From IMG/VR virus record IMGVR_UViG_3300032144_000002, positions 12,575 to 76,574 of that record: a DNA stretch of 64,000 nt; one strand, written 5' to 3'. The first letter of the stretch is position 1; every line of letters begins with the position of its first letter. This document shows, piece by piece, positions 3,784 to 40,998 of the stretch. Source of the stretch: a virus. Its lineage: Duplodnaviria; Heunggongvirae; Uroviricota; Caudoviricetes. Made by a program: the position numbers and the translations under genes. The notes beneath the pieces are model-generated. The model had not been told where the DNA came from. It worked only from the letters and a program-made list of their open reading frames with translations, and did no database searches.

Positions 3784-3805
3784 GCAAACCAAAGCCGTCA
3801 AAGCC

Positions 3806-5125: not shown

Positions 5126-5135
5126 GAGTAAAGCG

Positions 5136-5588: not shown

Positions 5589-5589
5589 G

Positions 5590-18300: not shown

Positions 18301-18640
18301 TTGATACGCAACAATAAGCATTGCAACGGTAACGCCCGCGCCTAGCATGCTGGCGGCCAGCATTGCAAGGGTTTATTTAACAATAATGGGCCGCGCCAGC
18401 CGGCCTAGGGGCCTCTAATGGCCGGAATGGGCGGCCCCGCCATACCGCTACGGCAGCCAGCCTAGGCAGCCTGCTAGGCCGGTGCCCGGGGCTGCTTAGG
18501 CGGGGCCTGTGCCCTACTGGCGGCCCGGTGCGGCCCCGCCAGCCGGTGCCTGCCCCGGTGCCCCGCCCCCGGGGGCGGCCCCTGTAGGTGCTAATAGGCC
18601 GGCTGGCGCGGCCCGGTTAAGGGCGCGGCAAACCGCCTGA
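18300..18640. repeat. GC-rich repeat island R1 (shares motifs with islands at about 48960-49280, 54780-55200, 63400-63550)
   Basis: Direct repeat AGCATTGCAA x2 flanking palindrome AGCATGCT; multiple CCTAGG sites; GGCCGGCTGGCGCGGCC element also present in island R2. Confidence 0.45.
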
Positions 18641-19260
18641 GCCATCTCAGCGTCGTCAGCGCGGCACACCCATGCGTTGAGCTTGTGGTCGCGCACTGAC
18701 AGGCCATCGGCTCCGATCAGGTAGCGGTCAATCGGCTCGACCGGAGGTTCGGCAGGATGCAGGTTCGAACCTTCATCGCGATGCGCGTCCCAGGTGTGTT
18801 CAAGCATCCGCCGGTTTAGCTCCGCTGCCTCGGCTTCGGGCATGACTTTGATGTCTTGCAGCCGGGTGGCGTCGATGTACCGGTCGATGACAAAGCTGGC
18901 TTCTTGCAGCTCTGCCTGATTGCCGGTGGCCTGCCACTTGAGAAGGAACCCAACGACCGTGCCTTGGTAGTAGTCGAGATCGAATAGCGCGATGATCTCG
19001 TCCAACGTGTACGCGCCATCCGGTGGCGCGTTGACGATGACAATGCGTGGGTCGCTGCAGAGCTCTACGTACTTGGCGAGGTAATGCTTGGACTTCTCCA
19101 AGTCTTGCAGACCGTTCTTGTCACGCCACCTGAACAGGTACTTGGTGATGTTGCCGACGTAGTAGCCCCATCCGTTCTTGGCCACCAGATCCCAGTGCTG
19201 CACGCTACCGCGCTTGCTGTAATGATTGCCGCCGATTTGAACCTTGTTTGCTTCGCTCAT
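18514..19260 (-). CDS. DUF3310-family phage protein (nucleotide-metabolism associated); start at internal ATG 19260 with GGAG RBS; C-terminal Gly/Ala/Pro tail runs into GC island and may be over-extended
   Basis: KVQIGGNHYSK (GGxHY-type motif) and conserved YLAKY region; track ORF extends to 19335. Confidence 0.45.
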   Translation of the reverse strand: MSEANKVQIGGNHYSKRGSVQHWDLVAKNGWGYYVGNITKYLFRWRDKNGLQDLEKSKHYLAKYVELCSDPRIVIVNAPPDGAYTLDEIIALFDLDYYQGTVVGFLLKWQATGNQAELQEASFVIDRYIDATRLQDIKVMPEAEAAELNRRMLEHTWDAHRDEGSNLHPAEPPVEPIDRYLIGADGLSVRDHKLNAWVCRADDAEMAQAVCRALNRAAPAGLLAPTGAAPGGGAPGQAPAGGAAPGRQ

Positions 19261-20105: not shown

Positions 20106-21194
20106 TCACTCGACACCTCCACCACGGCGCGTCATCCACTGGATGCCAGCGAACTGCCAGTCGCAGTCTGGCATGGCGTTCTCCATGATTGCGATAGCGT
20201 TCATGGCGCGCCGGTGCTTCTCGGGCACCGAATCGTTCTTGTACACACGCCACGCCAGCCGCATCGGTTCGGCCACCTCTTTGAAGAAGCGGAAGCTGGT
20301 GCCGCGTCCTTCACAGAAGCTGACGCACTCCGCCAGCCACTTCTGCCAGTCGGCAGGCTGCAGCCCGGTGAACAGCGGGAACGTGCCGGTGCCGATATCC
20401 TGGTACGGATCGATCCGGTAGTCCGGGTTCTCGCACACATTCTTCCACGCTGGCTGATCCGTGTACACGTGGAAGCTGTCGCTCACCTGTCGGTAGATTC
20501 CGACCGGCACGCCGACGGCGCTGGCGATGAACTCCTGCAGCGTGCTGAACTGTACGATATTGGCACCATACGCGCCCCATATGATGTCGTTGCTGCGGCA
20601 GGCCACGGTCATGTCGAGCGCGCCGTCCCTGATCTTGAACATCAGCAGGTCATTGCACGGCATGTCCTTGGTCTTCCTGCCAAGATCAAGGTACGGGTTC
20701 CAGATCGACAACACCACCTGCCGCGTGCTGTGGTCCTTGCTCAGCAGGTCGATGGCCACGGCGATCTGGTCAAGCGTACCGGATTCGCTCATCGGGCCGA
20801 TGCCGGTGTCGTACTCGATGTCCGGTACATCCCAGTTCCGCAGCCGGTAGCCGTAAGGCGCATGGAACTCTTCGCCGTTGTCGCTGTACGCGGCGATGTT
20901 GGTGTTGAACTCCTTCAGGAAGGCCACGTCTTTGCGACCTGCCAGAATCCACAGACTCTCCATCAGATGGAAGAACGGGTTGGCGTCACGGTGTGGAGAC
21001 CAGAGGACACGTTCCACTGGCTCCTGGTATTCGGTGATGACAGGCCCTCGGTATTCGAGGGTCTGAAGTCCACGTGGTGAGATGTCGCGCCAGTAGTAGT
21101 CGCGGCGCGGGTCACGAAGCATCGAGCGTACCCTCGACAGGGCTTGGTTGACATTGCGAACGCGGATGATGGTCGCCTCATTCAAAGTGCTCAT
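20106..21194 (-). CDS. Thymidylate synthase (ThyA)-family pyrimidine C5 one-carbon transferase with about 90-aa N-terminal extension; substrate (dUMP/dCMP; methyl vs hydroxymethyl) not determinable by eye
   Basis: FHLMESLWILAG (folate-binding helix), VVLSIWNP, MPCNDLLMF (catalytic Cys in PCH-like motif), ACRSNDIIWG (RSCD-like) align to ThyA core. Confidence 0.8.
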   Translation of the reverse strand: MSTLNEATIIRVRNVNQALSRVRSMLRDPRRDYYWRDISPRGLQTLEYRGPVITEYQEPVERVLWSPHRDANPFFHLMESLWILAGRKDVAFLKEFNTNIAAYSDNGEEFHAPYGYRLRNWDVPDIEYDTGIGPMSESGTLDQIAVAIDLLSKDHSTRQVVLSIWNPYLDLGRKTKDMPCNDLLMFKIRDGALDMTVACRSNDIIWGAYGANIVQFSTLQEFIASAVGVPVGIYRQVSDSFHVYTDQPAWKNVCENPDYRIDPYQDIGTGTFPLFTGLQPADWQKWLAECVSFCEGRGTSFRFFKEVAEPMRLAWRVYKNDSVPEKHRRAMNAIAIMENAMPDCDWQFAGIQWMTRRGGGVE

Positions 21195-21946
21195 TAACGA
21201 ATCTCCAGCTTGGTCGGCGGTTCAATGAAAGTAACAGTCTTATCTTCCGCAATGGCCTGCGGTGTGCCCCATTCATGGAGCTGATTACGGTCGATCATGC
21301 TGGCAAGCTTCGGTCCTTCGATATACTTGAACAGCCCGGAAAGGTATGGCTCGTCATCCGGCTTTGAGTCACGACGCCACTCGGCCCACGCATCAAGAAG
21401 AATGCGTGCTGACCGAAAGAAGAATGCCCCGGCCAGCGCGTACCGAGATATCGGCTTCTTCTCAATGCCGAAGTTGAAGTCTGGGTACGCGTCGATGTAC
21501 CCGAAGCGATACTCATTGGCGTCAAACACGACAGCGCCGGCGCTGGCCTTTGAGTTCGCGTACCAGTTGTGAGCGAACGTAGTTAGCCGGTGCTCCTTGA
21601 CAGCGAATGCGTTGTCCGAGTTCACCACGAGTAGCTGGTCATAGGCGCCAATGTGCGGTGCGCATGCCAGTCGTGCGACTGTGTCAGCCTGTCCCATGCT
21701 TGCACCGACCGGAATCACAACGTAGTCGGCCGGCAGCGCCGCAGCGAACGCTTCCCAGTCCTGCGGTCTGCATCCGATCAGTGGTGCCAGTGAATCCGAC
21801 ACAGATTCAACGACGTGTTCGATCATAGTGCGCCGTTTACCACGCCAGCCCATTTTCAACAGGCCCTTCGGCTTTTGGTATCCAGCCTCGGCAAACCTCC
21901 GGCTCTCGCCGGCAGCAGGTATCAACAGTTGCAGCATATTGTCCAC
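21194..21946 (-). CDS. Sugar-1-phosphate nucleotidyltransferase (NTP_transferase family; MurU/RmlA/LicC-like)
   Basis: N-terminal LIPAAGESRRF signature (G-x-G-x-R NTP-binding loop); ATGA overlap with ThyA-like gene. Confidence 0.75.
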   Translation of the reverse strand: MDNMLQLLIPAAGESRRFAEAGYQKPKGLLKMGWRGKRRTMIEHVVESVSDSLAPLIGCRPQDWEAFAAALPADYVVIPVGASMGQADTVARLACAPHIGAYDQLLVVNSDNAFAVKEHRLTTFAHNWYANSKASAGAVVFDANEYRFGYIDAYPDFNFGIEKKPISRYALAGAFFFRSARILLDAWAEWRRDSKPDDEPYLSGLFKYIEGPKLASMIDRNQLHEWGTPQAIAEDKTVTFIEPPTKLEIR

Positions 21947-22398
21947 CCCGTAGCAGCGCGCAGATACTTCGATGATTCAACGTTGTCTTCGAACATGATG
22001 CCGGCAGTATCGTACTGATTGAGAAAGGAAGCCTTGTCCTTCACGCCACACCCGGCCAGTATGGTGCCAACCTGAAGGCGAAACTTCTCGGCCAGAAGAT
22101 AAACGGATTCATACGATGCGCCGGTCAGAATGATCGGCTGCCTGTCCGTGGCAGCAAGGTGCCTGTACAACGACAGCAACGGCAGTGCCGTGACCATGCC
22201 CTCATAGATCCTTGTCCTGTACGCGGCGGCCTTGGCCTTCCGCAACGCCTTGGCCTCTTCTTCGGTTCCCTTGAACCACTCAACGAATGGCTTGCCGAAG
22301 AAATCCAGTGGCGGTGAGACGCCAGCGTCCACATACGCTTGCCTGACAGCATCCTTGGTGTCAAGAAGAGTGCCGTCTAGGTCGAAAGCGTATCGCAC
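21922..22398 (-). CDS. HAD-superfamily phosphatase; start assigned to GTG 22398 (AGGAGG RBS), alternative in-frame ATG at 22545 lies inside upstream gene
   Basis: YAFDLDGTLLDT is HAD motif I (DxDGT); small cap-less HAD like sugar-phosphate phosphatases. Confidence 0.55.
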   Translation of the reverse strand: MRYAFDLDGTLLDTKDAVRQAYVDAGVSPPLDFFGKPFVEWFKGTEEEAKALRKAKAAAYRTRIYEGMVTALPLLSLYRHLAATDRQPIILTGASYESVYLLAEKFRLQVGTILAGCGVKDKASFLNQYDTAGIMFEDNVESSKYLRAATGWTICCNC

Positions 22399-23177
22399 AT
22401 CGCCTCCTTTGACTTGTACCTGCCATTGATGAGGACGTCGTAGATCATCGCCGCATTGCGACGGCCCCACGTATAAGCCTGTACGTCGCCGGCCTTCGTG
22501 GCGTATGGCATCAACCGCAGGCAATGCACCATGCACCAGAACCACGCACGCTCATGGTGCTCTTCAGGCAGCCGTTCGAGGATGATCGCCACGGCCGGAC
22601 GCATGTTGTACTGCCAGCCTAGACGCAGAGTTTCCCAGCCGATCGCCGACTGCAGCATCTTACCGAGATCGACCGTGGTGTCGTTTGTCACGCGGCACGA
22701 CCATATCGGATCGATGATGGCCATGCTGCCGTCTTCTCGGAACATCATGTTCGACAACGTCGGGTCGCCATGCACCATGCACCAGCTATCGAGATCGACG
22801 TGCAACCGGTTCACCAGCTGAATCGACTGGTCAAACGATTTCGGTGAGCGATCGTGCAGTTCAGCGATCAGATGCACCACGGCATCGTCCCAATCCACCG
22901 CCGGCACAGCCTTACGCCGCCACACGTTGAGATGCAGAATGTCGACGGCCAATGCGAGCATATCGCCGACGTTCTGGTCGTTCATTCGCCGGCCGAAGTG
23001 TTCGGTCGGCTCGATCAGCTTCTCCATCATGTAGCCGGTTCGCGATGCCGCTATCACACGAGGCGTAACGGGGTACATGATGCAGCAGAGCGCTGCTTGA
23101 GCACCGAGGTTGTCGCCTTCTTTCAACACGCTGCTTGCCAACGCCGTCACGTTGGCCCCACTAAAACCTTTCTTCAT
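22377..23177 (-). CDS. APH/choline-kinase-fold kinase, candidate anomeric sugar kinase (AmgK/NahK/LicA-like)
   Basis: Brenner motif HGDPTLSNMMF and IIDP (D of DFG-equivalent) typical of aminoglycoside phosphotransferase-like small-molecule kinases; start at internal ATG MKKGF (track ORF starts at 23273 inside upstream gene). Confidence 0.6.
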   Translation of the reverse strand: MKKGFSGANVTALASSVLKEGDNLGAQAALCCIMYPVTPRVIAASRTGYMMEKLIEPTEHFGRRMNDQNVGDMLALAVDILHLNVWRRKAVPAVDWDDAVVHLIAELHDRSPKSFDQSIQLVNRLHVDLDSWCMVHGDPTLSNMMFREDGSMAIIDPIWSCRVTNDTTVDLGKMLQSAIGWETLRLGWQYNMRPAVAIILERLPEEHHERAWFWCMVHCLRLMPYATKAGDVQAYTWGRRNAAMIYDVLINGRYKSKEAMCDTLST

Positions 23178-23842
23178 CGGTATGCCCACTCCGGAGGACT
23201 GTAGTCGTAACGCTTGGCCATCTTGGCGATCTTGCTGCACATGCCTGGGTCCATGTCGTACAGGTCGTTCCATGTAACCCGCTTGGCCTTGAAGATTCCG
23301 CGCGACGCGTTCTTGGCGGTCTTCGGCACCTTCGGAATACTGAATGGCGGAAGACCCAGATCATCCAGCATGTTCTCCCACACATGCTGATCTTTCATGT
23401 CTTCGAGACGATACCGATTCTTCGTCAAACGCTCGCATCGCTTGTTCACCTCGTACCACGCATGCATGGCCTTGCGCAGTTTCGGTTTGAGGTCTTTTGG
23501 AATGACGCCATGCTTCTCAAGCCACTTCTGATGCTCGGTGCCCATCGTCTTCCAGATGGAACCAATGGTCTTCAACGGATCACGCACAAGATGCAGCACA
23601 TGCTTGAATTCGTAATCGCGCATACGCTGCCCGACATGGGCTATCAGCCCCTTCGGTGGCGTCGATGGCGACAACGGGTACTTCGGCGTGTCCATGAAGA
23701 AGTAGCATGATACGGTGCCGTCTTCGAGGACGTACTCGTGACCTACCCGCAGACCGACCTCCTTCAACATCCGGCACACGTAGGTAGTGCCGCTGCGACT
23801 GTTGCCGACAATCAACACGCGCCTTTTACTTGGAGCTTTCAT
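23174..23842 (-). CDS. Sulfotransferase-family P-loop protein (Sulfotransfer_3-like); alternative: P-loop kinase
   Basis: VLIVGNSRSGTTYV (5'-PSB-like P-loop) and HLVRDPLKTIGS (RDP-x-D/x-x-S 3'-PB-like motif). Confidence 0.5.
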   Translation of the reverse strand: MKAPSKRRVLIVGNSRSGTTYVCRMLKEVGLRVGHEYVLEDGTVSCYFFMDTPKYPLSPSTPPKGLIAHVGQRMRDYEFKHVLHLVRDPLKTIGSIWKTMGTEHQKWLEKHGVIPKDLKPKLRKAMHAWYEVNKRCERLTKNRYRLEDMKDQHVWENMLDDLGLPPFSIPKVPKTAKNASRGIFKAKRVTWNDLYDMDPGMCSKIAKMAKRYDYSPPEWAYR

Positions 23843-24668
23843 ACGCTTTCTTCCACTGCACCACCACCTCTTTTCTCGGAACGGACTTCAAGTAGGCACG
23901 ATCAACGACCTTGACAAAGCCCTTGTGCAGCTTGGCCAACTTCTCGGCGTCGGCGTTGGATGCTTCCATGCTGCGTTCTTCGCTGGCACCGCCGCGCGAG
24001 TTGTAGACTTGGTCTACCGTGAGCTCAGCCAGCACGCGATTCTCCCACCCCTTGCGCAGCAGTTGCAGGCAGTAGTCCATGTCTTCACGATGCTCGATAC
24101 GCCCGAGCTTGCACTCTGCTTCCACGATAGCGCAGTCGTAGCCGAGTGCGTAGACCATGCGGTAGTTGCGCAGCCATCGCAACCTTCTGATGGTTTCGTC
24201 GACTTCAAGATCGCCGAACTTCTTACTCAGGTTACGACGCTGCAGCGCTTCAACGCGGTTATTACCTTGGCGAGTACTGATGCCGACATGGGCGTACTCT
24301 GTGAGAGCCTTACCTACTCGCCGAAGACCACGTCCCACGTCCTCAACCGTAGGCTTGACCAGCTTGGTCGGGGCTTGCGTATAGTCACGCACGCTAAACC
24401 GCAGATCATCGTCGAGCATGAGGATATAGCTGTCACGCTCGCGTGCCCACCGATCAATGATCCACGCCCGCTTGCTGGCGATGGTCGTGATCTTCTTCGG
24501 CACCACTACCATGTCGCACCCGGACTGCTTGGGTAGCCCAAGCCTTTCGAACTCGCGCGCGTCGCTGCTGTCGCAGACCAGCGTCGTCTTCTTGCGCCAC
24601 TCAGGAGGCAGCTCACGCAGCGTAATCTGTCTGGTAACGCGCCGGTATGTCGGTATGACGATTCTCAT
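23826..24668 (-). CDS. GT-A fold glycosyltransferase (DXD motif)
   Basis: SYILMLDDDLRF DXD motif preceded by hydrophobic beta-strand; N-terminal MRIVIPTYRR Rossmann start. Confidence 0.5.
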   Translation of the reverse strand: MRIVIPTYRRVTRQITLRELPPEWRKKTTLVCDSSDAREFERLGLPKQSGCDMVVVPKKITTIASKRAWIIDRWARERDSYILMLDDDLRFSVRDYTQAPTKLVKPTVEDVGRGLRRVGKALTEYAHVGISTRQGNNRVEALQRRNLSKKFGDLEVDETIRRLRWLRNYRMVYALGYDCAIVEAECKLGRIEHREDMDYCLQLLRKGWENRVLAELTVDQVYNSRGGASEERSMEASNADAEKLAKLHKGFVKVVDRAYLKSVPRKEVVVQWKKAYESSK

Positions 24669-25672
24669 TTCAATTTCCCCAATACCTTGGATATCACACT
24701 CGGGTGGTGATTGTCAAGCGTCTTCTCAACGGCACGTCGCATGTCGCGGTAGTCTGGCCAGCCGATGTTCTCCACCAGATTGACAAGCTCTTGCGCGTCG
24801 GTTACCACGTAGCAGTTCTTGTCGATCTCCATGTCGCCCTTCTCTTTGGCCCAGCGCTTGTGCAGGATGTTGATGCATCCGGCATCCATGGCCTCGAGGA
24901 ATGAGTACTGCGTACCACCACCATCGCCCGAGTAGACAGAAAGATCCACGTTGATGCGGAAGTCTTTGGCCAGTGCTACCGCCTGCGCAGATCCCACGAA
25001 ACCGATGCCCGGCTTGTAGTGCCTGTATCGGTCCATCAAGTTCATGCGCAAGAAGTGTGTAGTCTCCTTGCCAAGGAACACGATACGCTTGTCAGCCTTG
25101 AGAGCTTGATTCGCATCGCACAGCATGTACGGGTGCTTGTTCGTAGCGATCATCGCGATAGAGCATGCAGCCTTTCGACGTACCCACTGCTCCTGTGCCG
25201 CAGTGCCGAACCTGCTGCGCACATACGGATGCGGCACGTACTTCGAGCGCTTGAAGTAACCCTGCAATCGCTCGCGGATGACGAGCACGCGCTCACCAGC
25301 CTCGCGCAACTTCAGTTCTTCAAGATGCGGGAACTGCTTGAACTCCTGCGTCGACTGTACGAAGATGTAGGCGCCGGCACGGAACAGCTTCTTGACCGTG
25401 TCCTCGTCTGCGAGATCGTCCGGGCGTGCAACCGCCGTGATGAGCGTGAGATCCTTCTTTGCAGCGCGCACAGCCTGCGCCACCGTGACGTTCTGGTACA
25501 CGGTGCCGTGGTGCTTCATGGTGCGAGCGTGTCCTTCCTCGCGATCTTTGTTGCACCTCAGTACGTTCACGTCCCAGCCTTCGGCCTTCAAGCCGTGGTA
25601 CATGTGAGCAGTGAACGTGGCAAAGCCGCCAACGTTCCACGGGCTCAGGTAAATCAAATTGATCTTTGGCAT
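24665..25672 (-). CDS. GT-B fold glycosyltransferase (GT4/GT1-like)
   Basis: C-terminal FLEAMDAGCINILHK resembles the E-x7-E / EAMAAG donor-binding motif of GT4 enzymes; start at ATG MPKINLIY (track ORF starts further upstream at 25807). Confidence 0.6.
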   Translation of the reverse strand: MPKINLIYLSPWNVGGFATFTAHMYHGLKAEGWDVNVLRCNKDREEGHARTMKHHGTVYQNVTVAQAVRAAKKDLTLITAVARPDDLADEDTVKKLFRAGAYIFVQSTQEFKQFPHLEELKLREAGERVLVIRERLQGYFKRSKYVPHPYVRSRFGTAAQEQWVRRKAACSIAMIATNKHPYMLCDANQALKADKRIVFLGKETTHFLRMNLMDRYRHYKPGIGFVGSAQAVALAKDFRINVDLSVYSGDGGGTQYSFLEAMDAGCINILHKRWAKEKGDMEIDKNCYVVTDAQELVNLVENIGWPDYRDMRRAVEKTLDNHHPSVISKVLGKLK

Positions 25673-25674
25673 GG

Positions 25675-25965
25675 CTACCCTTTGTTCTTTCGATACTTCC
25701 ACATCAGGAAGAGCCAGACTGCGTTGACCGTAGTCATGGACACGCCGCCGGCAAACGACGCCCACTGGCCAAGCGACGGATAGTAGTAAAGATTCCACAC
25801 GCCCCACGCTACAAAGAACGTGGTGGCCACCTTGGAAACTCCATGAGACTTCTTGTCGATCAGCATGCGTCGAACGTTCAGCAGTGCGAACATGCTGGCC
25901 AACAGTTCGAAGCTGGCATTGATGAGGTCATTAACTTGCACGGTGCTGCACCTTCTTGAGAACAC
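25675..25965 (-). CDS. Small polytopic membrane protein (3 predicted TM helices)
   Basis: 96 aa, three hydrophobic helices, basic C-terminus; adjacent to glycosyltransferases. Confidence 0.4.
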   Translation of the reverse strand: MFSRRCSTVQVNDLINASFELLASMFALLNVRRMLIDKKSHGVSKVATTFFVAWGVWNLYYYPSLGQWASFAGGVSMTTVNAVWLFLMWKYRKNKG

Positions 25966-26236
25966 GCTTCAGCAGTCGCTTGAGCGACTCCGACTCGCCG
26001 GGCTCGAATGAACTGCCGTCATCAATCGGTTTCAACAGATGACGCGCCACTAGTAGCGTCACGCCGTCAGCGTCCGCGCGCACCGAATACATGTCCCACC
26101 TATATTTGTAGTCGCCGATTTTGCCGGGGCCGTGAAACGTGACGACTGTGCCGGTGTCACCGACGTACTTACGGCAGTCAGGATCTATATTCAAGCCGCC
26201 GATGATTCGAACACGCTGCATGGGCTTCAGCTGCAT
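25931..26236 (-). CDS. Hypothetical protein (KOW/SH3-like small beta domain?)
   Basis: Start at internal ATG MQLKPMQRVRIIGG just after upstream stop. Confidence 0.3.
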   Translation of the reverse strand: MQLKPMQRVRIIGGLNIDPDCRKYVGDTGTVVTFHGPGKIGDYKYRWDMYSVRADADGVTLLVARHLLKPIDDGSSFEPGESESLKRLLKRVLKKVQHRAS

Positions 26237-26238
26237 GA

Positions 26239-27330
26239 CTACTCCTCGTCGTCGTACACGACGCGCGGTTCGCGTGGCGGATGGTAACGGCTGCGCGGCC
26301 TGCCCTCGTCCATCTTGACCCGCATGTACTTGTCGAACTCGCATAGCGAATGCTCGATTTCACGCAGCTCAAGCGGGCAATCGACACCAGTGCGCAGGTG
26401 CTTGCGCAAATCCTCCGGCATCGCCGCTAATAGCATGCGCATCGCTTCGATGTAGTCGATGCCTCCTACCTTCGTATGCTTACCATACATCAGGCGACGG
26501 ATGCCGCGCATGGCACCGGGTCCCGGGTTGGCCCACGAAAGTACGTCCTTCGCGCGGTGCAGCACCTTGGTGAACCGCAGGTCGCAGGCCAGCTCGTAAC
26601 CGATGAATCCGCCGATGGTAGGTACACTCATCAGCACTTCAACGGCGTACTGCATTGAAGGTCCTTCGTATTGATTGGTGCCCGGTATCTTGCGGCCGCG
26701 CCGTATCTTGTTGGCCAGCTTGATCTTGCGCTTCCACACATAGTCGACTGCGTCGCAGATGACTTCGATCTTCGGGTCGTCGCGCCCGCCGTTCGGAATG
26801 ATGTACGCGCCGGTGAAGATCTGCTCGTGGTCTTCGTCCTTGCGCTTGGTGAGGATGCGTATCGCGTCCTTCTTGTCCCACTTCTTCATGCCGAAGTACA
26901 GCGCATCGTAGGTCTCTGGCAGATTGAACAGCCGGAACATCACGTTGTGAAAAAGGATGTCGCTGGCCAGAACCTTCTTGGTGCCATTAGCCGAATTGAT
27001 CAGGTTGATATAGCGGTCTTGCCAAGCTAGACTGACGCGGTCGAGCTGGCGGTACACGTTGGTGAACTTGAACTCGTTTAGGATTCGATCCTGCGTCCAT
27101 GGGTACGGCGCTTTGTCCTTGAAGCGCTTCAGGTAGATGGCGTGGCGCTCGCTCATCCAATACCAGAACAGCTTCAGCTGCGCTGCCAGAAACTTGATCT
27201 TGGGTTTCTTCTTCGGCTTCTCCACCGACTTCGGCGAGTGCTTGCTGGCTATGCCGACGCGCGTAGCCTTCAGTCTGATTACACCGCGCACCAGCTTAGC
27301 TTTCTTCTTTCGCTTCACTTGTGACCTCAC
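26239..27330 (-). CDS. Conserved hypothetical protein with Lys-rich N-terminal tail (possible nucleic-acid binding) located at the head of the modification cluster
   Basis: 363 aa; N-terminal KRKKKAKL...KPKKKPKIK; conserved-looking core WYWMSERHAIY...NVYRQLDRVS; no family recognised by eye. Confidence 0.4.
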   Translation of the reverse strand: MRSQVKRKKKAKLVRGVIRLKATRVGIASKHSPKSVEKPKKKPKIKFLAAQLKLFWYWMSERHAIYLKRFKDKAPYPWTQDRILNEFKFTNVYRQLDRVSLAWQDRYINLINSANGTKKVLASDILFHNVMFRLFNLPETYDALYFGMKKWDKKDAIRILTKRKDEDHEQIFTGAYIIPNGGRDDPKIEVICDAVDYVWKRKIKLANKIRRGRKIPGTNQYEGPSMQYAVEVLMSVPTIGGFIGYELACDLRFTKVLHRAKDVLSWANPGPGAMRGIRRLMYGKHTKVGGIDYIEAMRMLLAAMPEDLRKHLRTGVDCPLELREIEHSLCEFDKYMRVKMDEGRPRSRYHPPREPRVVYDDEE

Positions 27331-27541
27331 TTCGGAACACAGAAGGCTTTGACTCGCGTGCCGAACGGATTGTTCGCTTCGGCTGCGCGTGCGGCTACCT
27401 CGCAGGTAGTCTTGGTGGTGAACTCGGCGGTAGTAACAGCGCCGCCGCCCTCGGTCTTGATAGCGGCCAGCATGATAATCAGAACGTACATAGGTACTCC
27501 AGAAAATGGAGGGCGCCGTTGCCAGCGCCCTCCGCTGCCGA

Positions 27542-28939
27542 TTACTCGGCGACGATGAAGCCCTTCTTGATGAAGCGTGGAACCCACGTCTTCACCTTGG
27601 CCGGCGCGATGCCTTCTTCCTTGGCAGCCGCCAGCAGCTTCTTGAACGTGATGCCCGACTTGGGGATCAGTTCGTTGGCCAGCTTGGACTTCGGCCCACC
27701 GCCGGGGCGCTTCTTGCCGCGCTTCAGCTTGGTGGAATCCTCCAGCTTGAACTTGGCCGGCTTCTCAGCCTTCTCGGCCTTCGCCTTCTTGGCCGGTTTC
27801 TCGGCCTTCGCCTTCTTGCCCTTCTTCGCTCTCACTTCCTTCTCCTCGTCGTCTTCGTCGTCCTCGTCGTCCTCGCCGTCTTCCGAGTCATCGTCCTCGT
27901 CGTCGGCGTCCTTGGCCTTCTTGCCCTTGGCTTTCTTGCCCTTGGCGAAGCCCTTGGCCTTGGGCTTCTTCTTGCCCTTCTTGGGCTCTTCGTCATCCTC
28001 GTCTTCCGAGTCCTCGTCTTCCGAGTCCTCGTCTTCCGAGTCTTCGTCTTCGTCGTCCGACTCATCGTCCTCGTCGTCCGACTCGTCATCCTTGGCCTTC
28101 TTGCCACCCTTCGCCTTCTTGCCCTTCTTGCCCTTGGGCTTCTCGTCTTCGTCCTCGTCTTCCGACTCGTCGCCACCTTCGACGGTTTCTTCGTCCTCGT
28201 CTTCGTCGTCGGCCGCCTCGGCCTCCATCGCCTTCATGGATGCCTTGCGCAACTCTTCATCACTCATCTTGTCCTCCTTCGAGGGACGTTTCTTGGATTC
28301 GACGGGCCACTCATCAAGCACAGTGCGGTCCGTCAGCCGCAGCGTGCCTTTCTTCTCCACGACCTTGAATGCTTGCAGCATCAAGTGTCTGGCGAAATTG
28401 AATGCTTCAGACCATGTCTTCGTGTTCAGACCAATGGGCGCTTCATCAGCGGTCAGCGCCGTGCGTATCAGAATCGAGAGTTCGGTCCACGACAGCGCGC
28501 TCAATATCGAGATAATCTCGTACATGAACTCGCCGTCGGCCTTCTTCTCTTCCAGATACTCGCGGTACTTCGGGGGCTTGCGCTCCTTCCGCTTGCACGC
28601 ATCAATGAACTCATCAAACAAGTTGCTGGTGTAGACCGGGATCTTTTCCTCGTTGATCAACGCCAGCCGTAGGTCCTCGCCACGCAGACTGGTGCCGTGT
28701 CGCTTCTTGCTCTTGCGTCCCTGCTTGGCTTCGGCGCTGGCTTCTTGTCGGCGCTTTCCGGCTTTGCTGTACTGCTTGAGCTCTTCGCGCGTACTCGGCA
28801 CAAAGCCTTTGGTCACGGTAGAGCGCTGTTCCACTTCCAAGGTCATGCGCTCTTTGCCCTTGCGGCGTTTCTTCTTGCGAGGGCGCTCTTCTTGATCTTC
28901 TGCTTCGTCGTCCTCGTTACGCTGCTTCCCGAAACCCAT
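27542..28939 (-). CDS. Polyampholyte protein 1: folded N-terminal domain followed by about 200 aa of poly-Asp/Glu tracts alternating with Lys-rich KKGKKAK blocks
   Basis: Runs of (E/D)10-30 separated by KGKKAKGGKKAK; consistent minus-strand codon usage; mirror-strand ORFs are Ser-rich artefacts. Confidence 0.55.
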   Translation of the reverse strand: MGFGKQRNEDDEAEDQEERPRKKKRRKGKERMTLEVEQRSTVTKGFVPSTREELKQYSKAGKRRQEASAEAKQGRKSKKRHGTSLRGEDLRLALINEEKIPVYTSNLFDEFIDACKRKERKPPKYREYLEEKKADGEFMYEIISILSALSWTELSILIRTALTADEAPIGLNTKTWSEAFNFARHLMLQAFKVVEKKGTLRLTDRTVLDEWPVESKKRPSKEDKMSDEELRKASMKAMEAEAADDEDEDEETVEGGDESEDEDEDEKPKGKKGKKAKGGKKAKDDESDDEDDESDDEDEDSEDEDSEDEDSEDEDDEEPKKGKKKPKAKGFAKGKKAKGKKAKDADDEDDDSEDGEDDEDDEDDEEKEVRAKKGKKAKAEKPAKKAKAEKAEKPAKFKLEDSTKLKRGKKRPGGGPKSKLANELIPKSGITFKKLLAAAKEEGIAPAKVKTWVPRFIKKGFIVAE

Positions 28940-32732: not shown

Positions 32733-33055
32733 TTCTTGAATGCCTCTTTGACTAATCCGGTCCAGTACCCGAGCTTGCTCTTGCCCCGGCCGCGCGGTGG
32801 CAGACGCTCAGTAGGAGGTTCTGGCGGTGCAGGCCGAGAGGCCGGTGCCGAAGCACCGACCTCCACGGACACGGTCCGCGTATCAACCACGCTGCTGCCG
32901 CTGACGTTGCCGCAGTACGGACAGACGCCACCAGAATCAAAGCGTTCGCGGTGATTGATCACGTGATCGCACCGCCGGCAAAGAACCCTCGCCTCGAAGC
33001 GTTTGGGCGCGTGGGTGTTGTTGGCCATGTCGATGAACCTACTTGGTTGGAACAT
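32729..33055 (-). CDS. Zinc-ribbon protein
   Basis: CRRC...CPYC. Confidence 0.3.
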   Translation of the reverse strand: MFQPSRFIDMANNTHAPKRFEARVLCRRCDHVINHRERFDSGGVCPYCGNVSGSSVVDTRTVSVEVGASAPASRPAPPEPPTERLPPRGRGKSKLGYWTGLVKEAFKK

Positions 33056-33917
33056 TCACGAACGGCACAGCGCCACCACCGAACATGTACGTCGGCAGCA
33101 CGCCGTTCCATTTCTGGACCGCTTCCCATTCCACGAGCTTGGCGTTCTGTTCGAGCGCTCTTGCACGGATGGAAATGGATTCAGCCTCGGCCTTCGCGTT
33201 CAGGATGGTGGCTTCGGCGTTGCCTCGCGCGGTTTCGATCTGCTGCGTTGCCTGCTCCTTGATCTGAACAGTTCGGTTCTGTTCTTCGATGGCCTTCTGC
33301 TCGGCGACTACCTTCGCCTCAACCGCGTTCTCGAACGCCGAAGTGTAGACGATGTCGGTCAGCTGAAAGCCGGCAACGATCACACGCCGCTTGGCCAGCG
33401 AAGCTGTGATGTTGGTCTCCATCAGACGTGTCGCAGCGTTGCGATTCTCGATCAGTGGCACCGCGTTGTGCTGCCCGACCTCACGCTTGATCTCCTCGAC
33501 CACGACCTGCCCGACCAGCTTGGCGGCCCAGTCCTCGCCGACTTCACGGTACACGAGGTGCGCGTCGGATGGCGACAGCGAGTACGTGAGCGTGAAGTTG
33601 ATGTTGGCCTGCTGCACGTCCTTGGTGTACGAGGACGTCTTGCCCTCCCACTTGAACTGGCGGATATCCATTTTCACCATGCGCTGCGTGAAGGGCATCA
33701 GGAAGTACAGGCCCTCGGGCAGCGACTGGTCACCGGGCTTGCCGAGCGTGACCTTCACGCCGCGATGGCCGGCTTCGACTGTGGTCATCGAGCATGACGC
33801 CATGATAAAGAAGAACAGAAGGCCGAGACCCAAGGCAACCCATTGCATCACGCGCCGCACGGTCTGCACCGTCTTGGCCCGCTCGATTGCCTGCATCTCT
33901 TCGTAACTGCGACTCAT
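33039..33917 (-). CDS. SPFH/band-7 (prohibitin/HflC-like) membrane protein
   Basis: N-terminal TM then HRGVKVTLGKPGDQSLPEGLYFLMPFTQRMVKMDIRQ... and C-terminal coiled coil, typical of the stomatin/prohibitin fold. Confidence 0.7.
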   Translation of the reverse strand: MSRSYEEMQAIERAKTVQTVRRVMQWVALGLGLLFFFIMASCSMTTVEAGHRGVKVTLGKPGDQSLPEGLYFLMPFTQRMVKMDIRQFKWEGKTSSYTKDVQQANINFTLTYSLSPSDAHLVYREVGEDWAAKLVGQVVVEEIKREVGQHNAVPLIENRNAATRLMETNITASLAKRRVIVAGFQLTDIVYTSAFENAVEAKVVAEQKAIEEQNRTVQIKEQATQQIETARGNAEATILNAKAEAESISIRARALEQNAKLVEWEAVQKWNGVLPTYMFGGGAVPFVNVPTK

Positions 33918-34105: not shown

Positions 34106-34428
34106 GCCGGCGCCGCCTCTTGCACGGAAGCAACGGCGGCCTTGGCCCGCAATGCGGCGAGCTCATTGTTGAGATCGTGCATCTTCTTGTTCAGGTCGGC
34201 GATCGTGCCGTCGCGCTTGGCAATGGTGGCCTGTTGCTCGCCCATCGTCTTGTTGTTGAGAGCCAGCTTTGCCTGCAGCTGACCGATCTGGTTCTTGAGC
34301 GTCTGAATCGTTCCCATGTTTGCCTCAGCGGTTGTAGATGTGATTGAGAATGGCGCTGGCGTGGCGTCCCTGATGTGCGGCATCGGCGACAGCGTTGTGC
34401 TTCTCGCCCTTGAAGTCGCCGGCTTCAA
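34102..34428 (-). CDS. Coiled-coil hypothetical protein
   Basis: Heptad-like LKNQIGQLQAKLALNNK...LNNELAALRAK. Confidence 0.3.
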   Translation of the reverse strand: MKPATSRARSTTLSPMPHIRDATPAPFSITSTTAEANMGTIQTLKNQIGQLQAKLALNNKTMGEQQATIAKRDGTIADLNKKMHDLNNELAALRAKAAVASVQEAAPA

Positions 34429-34975
34429 TACCGCGGAAAAGGTTCTTCAGCGTTCGGTAGCAGCGCACGTTGTACCACTTCCACGGCGCGGGTATCTGCT
34501 GCCGACGGTAAGCGTTGCCCAAGATGACCGGGTCGAAGTCTGCGCCGTTGCCCCACACCCACAGTTCGACTGTCTTGAAGCTCTTCTCGTAATGCGCTAC
34601 CTCGGCACTGCACCATGCCGCGAATGATTCGAGCACGTTGTCGAGTGTCAAGCCACGAGTATTAGTGAGCGCAGCTTTGGCGGCTTCCGTTTGATCGGCC
34701 CACCACTTCTTGGTGGCTTCTTCGGTGACCGAGCCCGGCTGGTCAGACCCATCACATGTGGCATAGAACCGATTGCCAACTTCTCGCTCGTCGAAGAACA
34801 CCGCGCCGACGGAACGAATGTAGGCATTGTTATCGAGGGCGAATGTTTCCAGGTCCAGCATGCAGTGCACCACCTTGCGCGTCGGCTTATACTTACTGGC
34901 CGTATGAGACGAGATCACGAACGCGATGATCACAGCAATCACCGCCACGAACCCAACTACTGCAATGAAATTCAT
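34325..34975 (-). CDS. DnaQ-like DEDD 3'-5' exonuclease with predicted N-terminal TM anchor (or soluble form from internal ATG near 34861 with AAGGTGGTG RBS)
   Basis: Exo I MLDLETFAL, Exo II WVWGNGADFD, Exo III HNAVADAAH; N-terminal IAVVGFVAVIAVIIAFVI; ATGA coupling to upstream gene supports the long form. Confidence 0.6.
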   Translation of the reverse strand: MNFIAVVGFVAVIAVIIAFVISSHTASKYKPTRKVVHCMLDLETFALDNNAYIRSVGAVFFDEREVGNRFYATCDGSDQPGSVTEEATKKWWADQTEAAKAALTNTRGLTLDNVLESFAAWCSAEVAHYEKSFKTVELWVWGNGADFDPVILGNAYRRQQIPAPWKWYNVRCYRTLKNLFRGIEAGDFKGEKHNAVADAAHQGRHASAILNHIYNR

Positions 34976-35280: not shown

Positions 35281-35496
35281 CTATGGACCGGCCGGCGCGT
35301 CGATGTAACCGAAGTCTCCGAACCTGCAACGCACTCGTGTGATCTGCTGATCGAGGTTCGTGCCATTGACCGGCGCACCGCCGCGAGCGACGCACTCATC
35401 AGCTAGCTGCTTCCACTGTTCGACAGTGAGTACGTCATTGCCGCCCTTCACGCAGGACGTCGCGGCCAGTGCCGCCAGTAAGAATGCGCGCCTCAC
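35281..35496 (-). CDS. Small putative lipoprotein
   Basis: LAALAATSC lipobox. Confidence 0.35.
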   Translation of the reverse strand: MRRAFLLAALAATSCVKGGNDVLTVEQWKQLADECVARGGAPVNGTNLDQQITRVRCRFGDFGYIDAPAGP

Positions 35497-36032
35497 GGCC
35501 GGATTGCCGAGCCGTCGTCGATGGACGACTCGAACTTCTGCAGCTCGGCGCGCGACTCGCGGTCATACTTGAGAACGGTGGCGATGTCGGGTGGCGTGTA
35601 GTTTGGTCCCTTCATCACCTTGCCGTCTTCGCGGTAGATCGGCTTGCCGTCGGCACCGAGCTTGCTCATGTTGGCGCGCTGGATTTCGTTGATGACCTTC
35701 TCGGCCGGAAAGCCGTGGATCAGGTTGGCGCCCTGCACCACGTAGTCGAGGTCACCGAGGGCGTCGGCGGCTTCGACGAGATCAACACGGTCGTCGTCCA
35801 CCACCGGCTGCACCACTACCGATGCATCATCGGACGTACCGTGAACCGTCGGGTCGTAGTGTACGTCGAGCCGGACGCCCAACGCTGCGGCGTACTCCAC
35901 GAGTTCTTCAGCGATGAGCTGAACGCGCAGCTTGCGCAGCGCCTTGGTCGCTGGCGTGTGCTCATCGGCGATCGGGTGGCCGAACGCTTCATGGAACTTG
36001 CGGACCAAGTTGATCGAATGCGGTTGATTCAT
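35493..36032 (-). CDS. MazG-family nucleoside triphosphate pyrophosphohydrolase
   Basis: VRKFHEAFG...LIAEELVEYAAAL and downstream acidic EAADALGDLDYVV, all-alpha NTP-PPase pattern. Confidence 0.6.
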   Translation of the reverse strand: MNQPHSINLVRKFHEAFGHPIADEHTPATKALRKLRVQLIAEELVEYAAALGVRLDVHYDPTVHGTSDDASVVVQPVVDDDRVDLVEAADALGDLDYVVQGANLIHGFPAEKVINEIQRANMSKLGADGKPIYREDGKVMKGPNYTPPDIATVLKYDRESRAELQKFESSIDDGSAIRP

Positions 36033-38444: not shown

Positions 38445-38661
38445 CGTCCCGTATCTCGTAGGTGCGCGACTGGAGTTCTACCAGTGGTATGTACCTGAAG
38501 TGACCGTAATGTATACCGTCAGTCCCGCGCGTACTCTGGTAGGCCCACATGCGATCTTTCGGCTGAAGCCAGTATCTCACCTGCTTGTCGATGCATCGTT
38601 CAAGCCACGCCTTGTCGCTTCCTTTGTATCTGCTGTGCAGCACTGACGGTATGTCTTCCAT
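38317..38661 (-). CDS. Hypothetical protein
   Basis: 114 aa, ATGA overlap with upstream NAMPT-like gene stop. Confidence 0.3.
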   Translation of the reverse strand: MEDIPSVLHSRYKGSDKAWLERCIDKQVRYWLQPKDRMWAYQSTRGTDGIHYGHFRYIPLVELQSRTYEIRDVDGAIGIGWTDCLYNPRTRKFTHNLRDHARTRRPNGNIDYRL

Positions 38662-40136: not shown

Positions 40137-40998
40137 TGTGAATCATCTCCAGGATCGGGTTGAGTGAATAGGTCGTGACGTTGTTCTGCTCGACGCTGAC
40201 GACCGGATGGTCGGCCACGGCCGGCATGCGATAGAAGCTGTCGGTCGTGTAGATATGCTTGTAATACTCCAGCAGCGACGACACGCCCTTGCTGAAGATA
40301 CCATGGCTGACGAAGAGCTCCAGCTCGGCGCCATGCTCCGCCACTTCTTCGCAGTGGAAGGCGTAAGCCAGCAGATTGAACGTACCGCCACCGTCGCAGA
40401 TGTCGTCGACGACTAGATACTTACCGACCTTGTTCAGTGTCGGTAGCACGTAGTTCGACAGCTTGCCGTCGCTCGGGTTGCGCTCTTTGGTAGCTTCGAT
40501 CAGCTTGGCGTTTGGGCAGTACGCTTCCATGAAATCGTGCGCCCTTGACAACGCGCCGTGGTCTGGCGCGATGACGAAGTCAACGTCTGGCCGCATCGGT
40601 AGCTTGAGGTCGGCCGGCATCCAGTTTGTGGGCCGCCAGTTGTACCCGTGCAGCGGCGAATGGATGTCGAAGACATGCACGTTGCGGCCCGAGTTGAACA
40701 GCCGTGTCATCATGCCCTTGGTAATCGGCGCGGTGCCGTCACTCTTGTCTTGACGAGCTGCCGGGCTGTACGGCATGAACAGCACTGGCTCGTAGCGCGA
40801 GCCTAGCAGTTCTCGTCTGCGATGCAACGCATCCCACACGCACGCACCAAGCCCAACGTCGTTCCATGTTCGGGCTTTCAGATGCAGAACCACTCGCTCA
40901 TCGAGCGGGATGTCAGGCAGCTTCGCGTGAGGCTCGCCGCCGGGAAAGAACAAGGTCTCCACACCGGAGGCCCCGTAGTCGTCACTGTCAATGATCAT
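40126..40998 (-). CDS. Ribose-phosphate pyrophosphokinase (PRPS)-like protein (may be NARP1 'Adps' ADP-ribose pyrophosphate synthetase)
   Basis: PRTase fold motif YLVVDDICDGGGTF and PRPS-like N-terminal half; overlaps NAMPT-like gene by 11 nt. Confidence 0.7.
   Translation of the reverse strand: MIIDSDDYGASGVETLFFPGGEPHAKLPDIPLDERVVLHLKARTWNDVGLGACVWDALHRRRELLGSRYEPVLFMPYSPAARQDKSDGTAPITKGMMTRLFNSGRNVHVFDIHSPLHGYNWRPTNWMPADLKLPMRPDVDFVIAPDHGALSRAHDFMEAYCPNAKLIEATKERNPSDGKLSNYVLPTLNKVGKYLVVDDICDGGGTFNLLAYAFHCEEVAEHGAELELFVSHGIFSKGVSSLLEYYKHIYTTDSFYRMPAVADHPVVSVEQNNVTTYSLNPILEMIHNVP

Follow-up and report, generated by a model that had tools for sequence, protein, structure and literature searches.

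Glycosylated pyrimidines in phage DNA, acceptor bases made by homologs of thymidylate synthase (ThyA), phage-encoded pathways for custom nucleoside diphosphate (NDP) sugars and the hypermodification of 5-hydroxymethyl-2'-deoxyuridine (5-hmdU) are all known from described systems. Here we analyse an operon in which these elements appear to be combined on 5-hmdU without the kinase/AADT branch and, above all, in which a conserved sulfotransferase (ST) gene stands inside the cassette. The operon lies in a stretch of 64,000 nucleotides (hereafter the window; positions 12,575 to 76,574 of IMG/VR record IMGVR_UViG_3300032144_000002) from a phage of the class Caudoviricetes, where positions 20106-27330 hold ten tightly packed co-directional genes, all on the minus strand. 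They belong to a transcription unit of 13 genes that encodes, in transcription order, an aGPT-Pplase1 protein (Pplase1), proteins of 101 and 88 amino acids (aa), a GT-B glycosyltransferase (GT), a GT-A glycosyltransferase of the TAGT family, the ST, an APH-fold kinase, a HAD protein, a nucleotidyltransferase (NTase), a ThyA homolog, an HD nucleotidase, a 98-aa protein and a DUF3310 protein (Table 1).

Comparison with described DNA-modification systems

In the Afh systems of RB69, DLP3 and HY126, as predicted for this operon, the acceptor base comes from a ThyA homolog that acts ahead of replication, an APH-fold 1-kinase, a HAD phosphatase and an NTase supply a custom NDP-sugar (UDP-arabinofuranose, through AfhE/AfhF of HY126, which have homologs in RB69 and DLP3), and a GT-B enzyme glycosylates the DNA after replication (PMC13326640). 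The kinase of the operon is homologous to RB69 gp52, whereas comparison of its HAD and NTase with RB69 gp51 and gp53 gave no significant match. The systems differ further in the base, which is 5-hydroxycytosine there (N177D and D169N in the ThyA homolog) and predicted to be 5-hmdU here (N177 and D169 kept, L143D), in the fusion of kinase and NTase there as opposed to separate genes here, and in that the operon has no arabinose-5-phosphate isomerase gene and adds the TAGT GT-A, Pplase1 and the ST.

The same logic of APH kinase, HAD, NTase and GT-B, together with a TAGT-like GT-A, is found in the biosynthetic gene clusters for 5-hydroxymethylcytosine (5hmC) glycans of Pyle et al. (bioRxiv 10.1101/2023.12.21.572611). 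In that work, GT-B pathways are often associated with thymidylate-synthase homologs, and a HAD-APH fusion, a cytidylyltransferase and a GT-B of contig 53 place heptose and di-heptose on 5hmC. Unlike the uracil-based, pre-replication acceptor predicted here, 5hmC is made in those clusters after replication by a methyltransferase and TET. The kinase, phosphatase, NTase and GT logic has, then, experimental precedent in phage DNA glycosylation, and the sulfotransferase has none: full-text literature searches brought up no paper that connects sulfotransferases with the hypermodification of phage DNA, nor any report of sulfate on DNA or of a sulfotransferase in a cluster for DNA modification, and the word sulfotransferase is absent from the two most relevant papers, including 0 occurrences in bioRxiv 10.1101/2023.12.21.572611.

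With the cassettes of M6, PaMx11, ViI and PhiW-14 (PMC8989533, PMC5889632) the operon shares the post-replication modification of 5-hmdU, predicted here, and with PaMx11 gp50-gp53 a syntenic set of genes for Pplase1, the dUMP hydroxymethylase homolog, the HD nucleotidase and DUF3310. Unlike in those cassettes, GTs, an NDP-sugar pathway and an ST stand in for the P-loop 5-hmdU DNA kinase (5-HMUDK) and AADT. In the window, tblastn with PaMx11 gp49 found no P-loop 5-HMUDK, tblastn with PaMx11 gp46 gave no significant match to an AADT (aGPT-Pplase2, PF18724), and neither Nmad5 nor a dCMP deaminase was found; because the window lacks all of these, the operon does not represent the classical amino-acid transfer pathway.

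Among deposited clusters, gp19-gp26 of PhiJL001 (AY576273), a phage of Alphaproteobacteria, comes closest, with Pplase1, TAGT, ThyA homolog, HD and DUF3310 genes in this order at 32-43% identity; unlike the operon, it has Nmad5 and lacks GT-B, kinase, HAD, NTase and ST. Base J (beta-D-glucosyl-hydroxymethyluracil) of kinetoplastids is a chemical analogue of the core product predicted here, in which a GT-A-type enzyme would have O-linked a sugar to 5-hydroxymethyluracil (5-hmU) in DNA. In base J, unlike here, 5-hmU is made on DNA by JBP dioxygenases, a single glucose comes from UDP-glucose and there is no sulfation.

The ThyA homolog and the acceptor base

The ThyA homolog was recognised by profile searches (PF00303, 1.4e-21, 77 bits against a cutoff of 24.3; phrog_5131, 9e-104), and its signature residues bear on the identity of the base. 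C180 (in MPCN) occupies the position of the catalytic Cys146 and aligns with the PPCH of thymidylate synthase; N212 (in YGANIV) occupies that of E. coli N177 and aligns with the Asn of PFNI, where MilA, a CMP hydroxymethylase, has Asp in a HMMER alignment with thymidylate synthase. The Asp of position D169 is kept as D203 (in CRSND), and D177, three residues ahead of C180, replaces the Leu of position L143 (L143->D). In the published scheme (PMC13326640, 2026), Asn at position N177 selects uracil and Asp cytosine, Leu at position L143 goes with methyl and D/E with hydroxymethyl, and D169N with flavin-dependent 5-hydroxylation. As N177 and D169 are kept and the residue at L143 is acidic, the enzyme is predicted to be a dUMP hydroxymethylase making 5-hmdUMP; the same signature residues ruled out a dCMP hydroxymethylase or a 5-hydroxy-dCMP synthase. 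PaMx11 gp51 and PhiJL001 gp24 share these residues and are 38-40% identical to the ThyA homolog over their full length, and PaMx11 DNA carries a 5-hmdU-derived base (PMC8989533).

The HD 5'-deoxynucleotidase, predicted to clear competing deoxynucleoside monophosphates, is encoded by a gene syntenic with PaMx11 gp52 which follows the ThyA homolog in every sister cassette that reaches that far. PaMx11 (gp53) and PhiJL001 (gp26) each have a DUF3310 homolog at the equivalent place.

Glycosyltransferases and aGPT-Pplase1

The GT-A enzyme belongs to TAGT, a family of DNA-base glycosyltransferases (PF20691, 1.2e-17, 65 bits against a cutoff of 27.5, residues 1-227; phrog_842, 3.5e-41). It carries a DXD motif (LMLDDDL at residue 86), is 34% identical to PhiJL001 gp22 and is predicted, from its pI of 9.7 and its place in an operon with the ThyA homolog and Pplase1, to be a 5-hmdU-DNA glycosyltransferase. 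The GT-B assignment is the weakest of the operon: its matches to Glyco_trans_1_2 and Glyco_trans_4_4 were sub-threshold (16 and 15.5 bits), and a search of PDB sequences with its profile found no match. Its family, with 75 metagenomic homologs, is larger than those of the ST and the kinase, has an invariant GGGTQYxxLEAxDxG motif and includes a member that stands beside Pplase1 and ThyA on contig L038 as the sole GT there. The protein is predicted to act on DNA or on a DNA-linked sugar.

The first gene of the unit, within open reading frame (ORF) 26239-27330, had been described in a first-pass annotation of the sequence as coding for a Lys-tailed protein of unknown function, with the advice to compare it with aGPT-Pplase profiles. 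It did match such a profile, PF18723 (HMUDK_hel, formerly aGPT-Pplase1; 4.8e-53, 180.8 bits against 25, positions 4-278 of 281), as well as phrog_2396 (1e-53), and the lysines form an N-terminal extension of about 45 aa, not a tail. Its homologs are PaMx11 gp50, PhiJL001 gp19 and probably, by position next to the 5-HMUDK gene, M6 gp55; in the M6-like phage SN1 an aGPT-Pplase1 gene is listed in the thymidine-modification cassette (PMC9476957).

At residues ~319-331, Pplase1 carries an E-x-E-H-x-L-C-E-x-x-K-Y motif with a Cys-Glu pair that is invariant in ten aligned homologs. This motif was aligned by hhalign onto the QEVETILC segment of the AADT PaMx11 gp46, in which the published catalytic Cys247 falls (PMC11472151); the alignment is weak (E 0.034) and constitutes the sole evidence of the correspondence. 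It hints that the proteins of this clade are enzymes with the same C6-thiolate chemistry, and not passive helical domains. We regard Pplase1 as a conserved core partner of 5-hmdU modification that retains an AADT-like Cys/Glu motif.

A predicted PAPS-type sulfotransferase

The structure model of the ST (predicted local distance difference test score, pLDDT, 90) shows a real sulfotransferase fold, which substantiates the sulfotransferase-like P-loop protein of the first-pass annotation. Across 16 homologs the GNxRSGTT loop (G13-N-S-R16-S-G18-T19-T20, the phosphosulfate loop) is conserved, and both R87 and S95, in HLVRDPLKTIGS, and an H35-E36 pair are invariant. The loop and the R87...S95 motif we take to be the hallmarks of binding of 3'-phosphoadenosine 5'-phosphosulfate (PAPS), namely the 5'-phosphosulfate loop and the Arg...Ser of the 3'-phosphate, by correspondence to residues of TPST. 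Family membership rests on fold and motifs, by which the modelled protein is a genuine sulfotransferase of the PAPS type, with PAPS use predicted.

Use of PAPS is also supported, indirectly, by gene neighbourhood. On contig L009 (IMGVR_UViG_3300033143_001775) a gene for an adenosine 5'-phosphosulfate (APS) kinase (PF01583, 2.7e-12; 2031-2414, plus strand) lies immediately upstream of the gene of a 38%-identical ST, in the order PIG-L-like de-N-acetylase (596-1147, plus strand), Pplase1, APS kinase, ST, ThyA homolog, HD.

The ST family is small, homolog searches having returned 17 proteins, all of them metagenomic. Compared with TPST1/2, StaL, Stf0/Stf9 and the heparan-sulfate NST and 3-OST, the ST is minimal (~215-222 aa), is encoded inside a DNA-modification operon and has no sequence-level match in the PDB, a profile search of PDB sequences having given nothing useful. 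The possibility that the P-loop protein of 23174-23842 might be a (split) 5-hmdU DNA kinase, against whose profiles the first-pass annotation had also proposed to search it, was discarded: it showed no similarity to PaMx11 gp49, and its fold is that of a sulfotransferase, not of a kinase.

Kinase, HAD and nucleotidyltransferase

The modelled kinase (pLDDT 91.6) found its structural matches among APH-fold small-molecule kinases, with Z scores of 15.9 for 3csv, 15.8 for methylthioribose (MTR) kinase, ~14-15 for choline kinases (3dxq 15.2, LicA 14.5), 14 for fructosamine-3-kinases, 12.7 for maltokinase and 12.6 for NahK. Its HGDPTxxN catalytic loop and Mg-binding Asp are invariant. The kinase family, again purely metagenomic, numbers 23 proteins. 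By hhalign its profile matches the kinase domain of RB69 gp52 (95.8%, E 7.4e-9) over a 63-column catalytic core only; in searches of the PDB the single sequence gave no useful match and the profile only weak Bud32-type matches. From fold, motifs and phage precedent, the enzyme is predicted to be a sugar or sugar-phosphate anomeric (1-)kinase.

In the HAD protein motifs I-IV (DxDGT, T/S, K, ED) are complete, with D6, D8, T10, T92/S95, K122 and D138 invariant in four aligned homologues. Its profile is weakly similar to beta-phosphoglucomutase (E 0.007), including a cap signal, and there is a hint of TIGR02009. The NTase profile matches the NDP-sugar pyrophosphorylase 4evw over its full length (1.9e-8), RmlA (2e-3) and phrog_3980 (3e-19), and its PAAGxSxRF...PK motif is invariant.

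The first-pass annotation had likened these three enzymes, hereafter the trio, to the MupP-AmgK-MurU salvage route. The analogy is serviceable, and closer precedents exist among phages, in AfhE/AfhF of HY126 with RB69 gp51-53 and in the contig 53 heptose cluster.

The cassette in other phage lineages

Homolog searches, contig look-ups and tblastn recovered sister cassettes on independent metagenomic contigs; the enzyme set returns in at least seven other metagenomic phage loci, each time in company with the ThyA homolog. Six genes (GT-B, TAGT, ST, kinase, HAD and NTase) occur together, in shuffled order and at 30-60% aa identity, on L003/L008, L004/L005, L006, L034 and L035, with a second TAGT in L004; the short contig L036 has five of them (TAGT, kinase, HAD, NTase and ST). 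Pplase1 and the ThyA homolog flank the set wherever a contig reaches both ends; on L034 and L036, which are cut, it directly adjoins the ThyA homolog. As this set is conserved across independent contigs, its arrangement is not due to chance. Moreover, in the seven loci with an ST at least 46% identical (the window, L003, L004, L006, L034, L035 and L036) the ST is always accompanied by TAGT and the trio, and GT-B cassettes without ST also lack the trio.

Contigs L037 (6383-13578) and L038 (7132-13198) carry Pplase1, a GT-B of the same family, with or without TAGT, a radical S-adenosylmethionine (radical-SAM)/SPASM enzyme and a ThyA homolog; profile searches found neither ST nor NDP-sugar trio there. 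These cassettes are predicted to specify another, uncharacterised 5-hmdU modification. A hidden kinase or ST was not detected in the GT-only cassettes of PhiJL001, L037 and L038, and we know of no report on the chemistry of PhiJL001 DNA. Because the GT-B also pairs with Pplase1, ThyA and a radical-SAM/SPASM enzyme in place of ST and trio, a general architecture can be proposed, Pplase1 - GT(s) - tailoring enzymes - dUMP hydroxymethylase - HD, of which the operon in the window would be the form that combines an NDP-sugar trio with a sulfotransferase.

Among deposited phages no near-identical DNA was found. When ST, kinase and GT-B were compared by tblastn with 50,697 deposited phage records, none had a match, and the NTase had only weak cyanophage matches. 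The phage is distant from cultured ones, its PolA sharing 37% identity with the PolA of Stenotrophomonas phage AXL3.

Proposed pathway and alternative explanations

That the operon serves the glycosylation of 5-hmdU in DNA we consider highly likely. The fuller reading, a DNA hypermodification that yields a glycosylated, probably sulfated 5-hmdU derivative, is the one we favour, with more reserve. The specific claim of a sulfated DNA-linked glycan stands at an even chance, and we are equally divided on the proposition that the phage DNA bears a sulfated nucleobase, either 5-hydroxymethyluracil carrying an O-sulfated sugar or 5-sulfooxymethyluracil itself, and that mini-sulfotransferases of a dedicated, DNA-acting clade install the sulfate. 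The first-pass annotation had already proposed DNA hypermodification at a (hydroxy)methylated pyrimidine by a possibly sulfated sugar from a phage-made NDP-sugar; the ThyA signature, TAGT, Pplase1, the ST fold and the conservation of the cassette favour this, with uracil-derived 5-hmdU and not cytosine as the base, and with a sulfate acceptor that we infer.

In the proposed pathway, the ThyA homolog would convert dUMP to 5-hmdUMP, as signature residues and orthology suggest, the HD 5'-deoxynucleotidase, perhaps with a MazG-like enzyme encoded elsewhere in the window, would bias the pool, and the phage PolA would put 5-hmdU in place of T. The APH-fold kinase would phosphorylate a host sugar or sugar-phosphate at C1, the HAD protein would trim or isomerise the product to a sugar-1-phosphate, and the NTase would make the NDP-sugar, a route consistent with folds, motifs and phage precedent. 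After replication, the basic TAGT and GT-B enzymes would act on double-stranded DNA and furnish the 5-hydroxymethyl group of 5-hmdU with a mono- or disaccharide. In a last and least certain step, the ST would sulfate the DNA-linked glycan with host PAPS. The product would shield the genome against restriction and other DNA-targeting defences.

DNA is taken as the target because TAGT scores above its cutoff, Pplase1 is present, the operon stands in the replication module, and ST, TAGT, GT-B and Pplase1 are basic. The latter have isoelectric points (pI) of 9.4-9.9 (ST 9.8, TAGT 9.7, GT-B 9.4, Pplase1 9.9), and ThyA, NTase, HAD, kinase and HD of 5.5-6.6. This split suggests that the ST may work on a polymer and the kinase on a metabolite, a charge argument that is soft as the whole ST family is basic (median pI 9.7). 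Also bearing on the sulfation step are the APS kinase gene beside the ST gene of L009, the constant company of TAGT and trio in the seven loci with an ST at least 46% identical, and the location of more distant viral ST homologs among GT2 and sugar-nucleotide enzymes.

Several observations weigh against the pathway as proposed. Sulfotransfer_3 scored 26.4 against a gathering threshold of 27, with only P-loop residues 9-28 matching, and the Pfam matches of kinase (APH, 22.6 against 23.2), HAD (21.7 against 26.4) and NTase (NTP_transf_3, 6e-6, 26.9 against 27) also fell just below gathering. The kinase fold resembles choline kinases equally well. On L009, no GT is visible between Pplase1 and ThyA; that contig is truncated inside an upstream ORF, which makes it unusable as proof of sulfation independent of GTs. 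On L023 (IMGVR_UViG_3300025267_001247; 501-6415, plus strand), a 27%-identical ST lies inside a GT-free classical thymidine hypermodification cluster, with a P-loop kinase, an N6/N4 DNA methylase, a radical-SAM enzyme, an AADT, a pyridoxal phosphate (PLP) enzyme and an amidoligase. Because this ST sits without GTs, the family extends beyond sugar contexts. The place of an ST in such a cluster suggests a wider, so far unrecognised role for sulfotransferases as a tailoring module in thymidine hypermodification. In addition, no thymidylate-depleting enzyme is proven, the window covers 64 kb of a contig of 76.5 kb, and the phage is uncultured and known from sequence.

The alternative that survives best, though we hold it to be unlikely, is that the ST acts directly on 5-hmdU in DNA, giving 5-sulfooxymethyl-dU as a final mark or as a leaving group. 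In the latter case sulfate would replace the phosphate of 5-HMUDK, the Cys/Glu-bearing Pplase1 would displace it with a nucleophile, and the GTs would modify the remaining 5-hmdU. Retention of Pplase1 in a window without P-loop 5-HMUDK and AADT, the alignment of the Pplase1 E-x-E-H-x-L-C-E motif with the Cys247 segment of PaMx11 gp46, the order Pplase1 - APS kinase - ST - ThyA without an intervening GT on L009, the GT-free cluster of L023 and the strongly basic ST, like DNA-acting enzymes, would all fit such a mechanism. Against it, Pplase1 also occurs in GT-only cassettes without kinase or ST (PhiJL001, L037, L038), and therefore does not depend on an activating enzyme in cis; the ST, where at least 46% identical (seven loci), follows the trio and TAGT, not Pplase1 alone; L009, truncated upstream, encodes a PIG-L-like sugar deacetylase; the Pplase1/AADT alignment is statistically weak; and the probable Pplase1 of M6, gp55, is dispensable in vitro (PMC8989533).

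The strict association of the ST with the trio in those seven loci, and the adjacency of its gene to the kinase or NTase gene in the window, L003, L034 and L036, would also fit an ST that acts before glycosyl transfer, on a free sugar, a sugar phosphate or the NDP-sugar, so that a pre-sulfated sugar is then moved to DNA. This we find doubtful, as the pI of the ST resembles that of the DNA-acting GTs and not that of the metabolite enzymes, and as the ST of L009 occurs without the trio. Known O-sulfation of glycans, in heparan sulfate, Nod factor and mycobacterial sulfolipid, takes place after glycosyl transfer or on a free disaccharide, and not on NDP-sugars, which also speaks against it.

More distant viral ST homologs lie among genes for GT2, methyltransferases and GDP-mannose dehydratase/epimerase, beside capsid genes. 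Together with the small membrane protein of the operon and the GT-B motifs, which are only generic GT4-like, this raises the alternative that GTs, trio and ST modify virion proteins or the host envelope or lipopolysaccharide and merely share an operon with nucleotide-metabolism genes. We consider it very unlikely: every related lineage has these genes between Pplase1 and the ThyA homolog or beside ThyA, in the replication and not the structural module, TAGT is a family of DNA-base GTs, both GTs and the ST are strongly basic, and the simpler cassettes of PhiJL001, L037 and L038 keep the core of GT, Pplase1 and ThyA.

Finally, a kinase and NTase making a cytidine diphosphate (CDP)-alcohol (CDP-choline or CDP-ethanolamine, by the logic of LicA/LicC) for a phospho-alcohol decoration instead of a second sugar, a choline-phosphate outcome that the first-pass annotation had itself named as contrary to its proposal, agrees with the choline/ethanolamine kinase matches at about the Z of sugar kinases and with the fold that LicC-type cytidylyltransferases share with the NTase, but is the least credible alternative, since the best solved relatives of the NTase are 4evw and RmlA and not LicC, the kinase profile matches the arabinose-5-phosphate kinase domain of RB69 gp52, a search of the data showed no LicD-type phosphotransferase, the operon encodes two glycosyltransferases and the HAD protein is of the sugar-phosphate (beta-phosphoglucomutase-like) subfamily.

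The favoured reading, a glycosylated and probably sulfated 5-hmdU, would be the first sulfated modification of a DNA base to be predicted. To date, sugars, amino acids, polyamines, phosphate and acetyl are known as groups attached to DNA; if the reading is true, sulfation, with PAPS as co-substrate, joins natural DNA chemistry, phages would possess a direct sugar-on-5-hmU (base-J-like) pathway that uses a pre-replicative ThyA homolog, and aGPT-Pplase1 would be a general core component of 5-hmdU modification, whatever the attached group. Should the second version, 5-sulfooxymethyluracil, be true, sulfate would be a leaving group equivalent to the phosphate of 5-HMUDK. Which restriction, CRISPR and type IV systems are able to cut a phage depends on the hypermodifications of its DNA, and these modifications have given useful enzymes, among them glucosyltransferases and 5-hmU kinases for epigenomic mapping; the cassette, present in several uncultured phage lineages, is a concrete, clonable enzyme set.

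Organisation of the locus and other features of the window

Strong terminator-like hairpins on the minus strand flank the 13-gene unit, at 27533-27508 and 18302-18272, and neighbouring genes overlap by 1-22 nucleotides (nt) or are separated by gaps of 2 nt. For several ORFs, independent pipeline calls on the same sequence (public contig L007) gave gene starts shorter than the longest ORF. The first-pass annotation had listed nine co-directional, mostly overlapping genes between 20106 and 27330; orientation and overlap were as it described, and a tenth gene, for the 101-aa protein at 25931-26236, had been missed. Its ThyA-like enzyme, sugar-1-phosphate nucleotidyltransferase, HAD phosphatase, APH-fold kinase and GT-A were all borne out by the profiles, motifs and model given above, and its GT-B stands as the weakest assignment, on weak Pfam matches and a conserved motif.

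Table 1. Genes of the predicted transcription unit in transcription order (coordinates are positions in the window)
Feature	Coordinates	Strand	Basis
aGPT-Pplase1 / HMUDK_hel protein, 359 aa	26239..27318	-	PF18723, phrog_2396
Basic 101-aa protein, function unassigned	25931..26236	-	ORF and pipeline gene call
88-aa probable small membrane protein, three hydrophobic segments	25675..25941	-	hydropathy
GT-B-type glycosyltransferase, 335 aa	24665..25672	-	weak Pfam matches, conserved motif
TAGT-family GT-A glycosyltransferase, 280 aa	23826..24668	-	PF20691, phrog_842
Predicted PAPS-type sulfotransferase, 222 aa	23174..23842	-	fold and motifs
APH-fold small-molecule kinase, 266 aa, predicted sugar/sugar-phosphate anomeric kinase	22377..23177	-	fold and motifs
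HAD-superfamily phosphatase or phosphomutase, 158 aa, C1-type cap	21922..22398	-	motifs
Sugar-1-phosphate nucleotidyltransferase, 247 aa	21194..21937	-	profile matches, motif
ThyA-family enzyme, 362 aa, predicted dUMP hydroxymethylase	20106..21194	-	PF00303, phrog_5131, signature residues
HD-domain YfbR-like 5'-deoxynucleotidase, 188 aa	19543..20109	-	PF12917 4.5e-15
98-aa protein	between HD nucleotidase and DUF3310 genes	-	pipeline gene call
DUF3310 protein, 248 aa, terminator 3' at 18302-18272	18514..19260	-	PF11753 5e-9

For the 101-aa protein no Pfam or PHROG match was obtained, and no homolog was detectable in the sister cassettes. The 88-aa protein had no significant Pfam or PHROG match and no tblastn conservation in the sister cassettes; other lineages carry unrelated small ORFs where its gene stands. 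Upstream of the operon, across the terminator, 27542-28939 (minus strand) encodes an extremely charged 465-aa protein of Lys/Glu/Asp low complexity, of which the N-terminal ~180 aa and C-terminal ~40 aa are conserved at the corresponding place on L003 and L004. A spurious poly-Ser ORF (27321-28634, plus strand) arises antisense to its gene.

The operon sits in the replication module of the phage, with genes for an SNF2 helicase, a PD-(D/E)XK nuclease, PolA, an ATP ligase and a primase-helicase on the same strand beyond 27330, and with the tail and lysis module on the opposite strand at its other flank. Also in the replication module, and on the minus strand, are genes for a Rv2179c-like 3'-5' exoribonuclease (34325-34975), a PRA-PH/MazG-like pyrophosphohydrolase (35493-36032), which may help to bias the deoxynucleoside triphosphate pool, an ATP-dependent DNA ligase (46115-47041) and a T4 endonuclease V-like pyrimidine-dimer glycosylase (47735-48292). 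No tRNAs were found, and a scan of genome contigs for host assignment gave no relative.

A NAMPT gene (38661-40136, minus strand; PF04095, 5e-36) is followed by one for a weak phosphoribosyltransferase-domain protein (40126-40998, minus strand), and a NADAR-domain protein is encoded at 58239-58862 (minus strand; 7e-28). These proteins look like a set for NAD salvage and ADP-ribose processing, which possibly counters defence systems that deplete NAD. The window also has two genes for SPFH/Band-7 domain proteins (33039-33917 and 56344-56922, both minus strand), and on L004 an SPFH/Band-7 gene adjoins the Pplase1 gene, on a contig that also carries a CsrA homolog.

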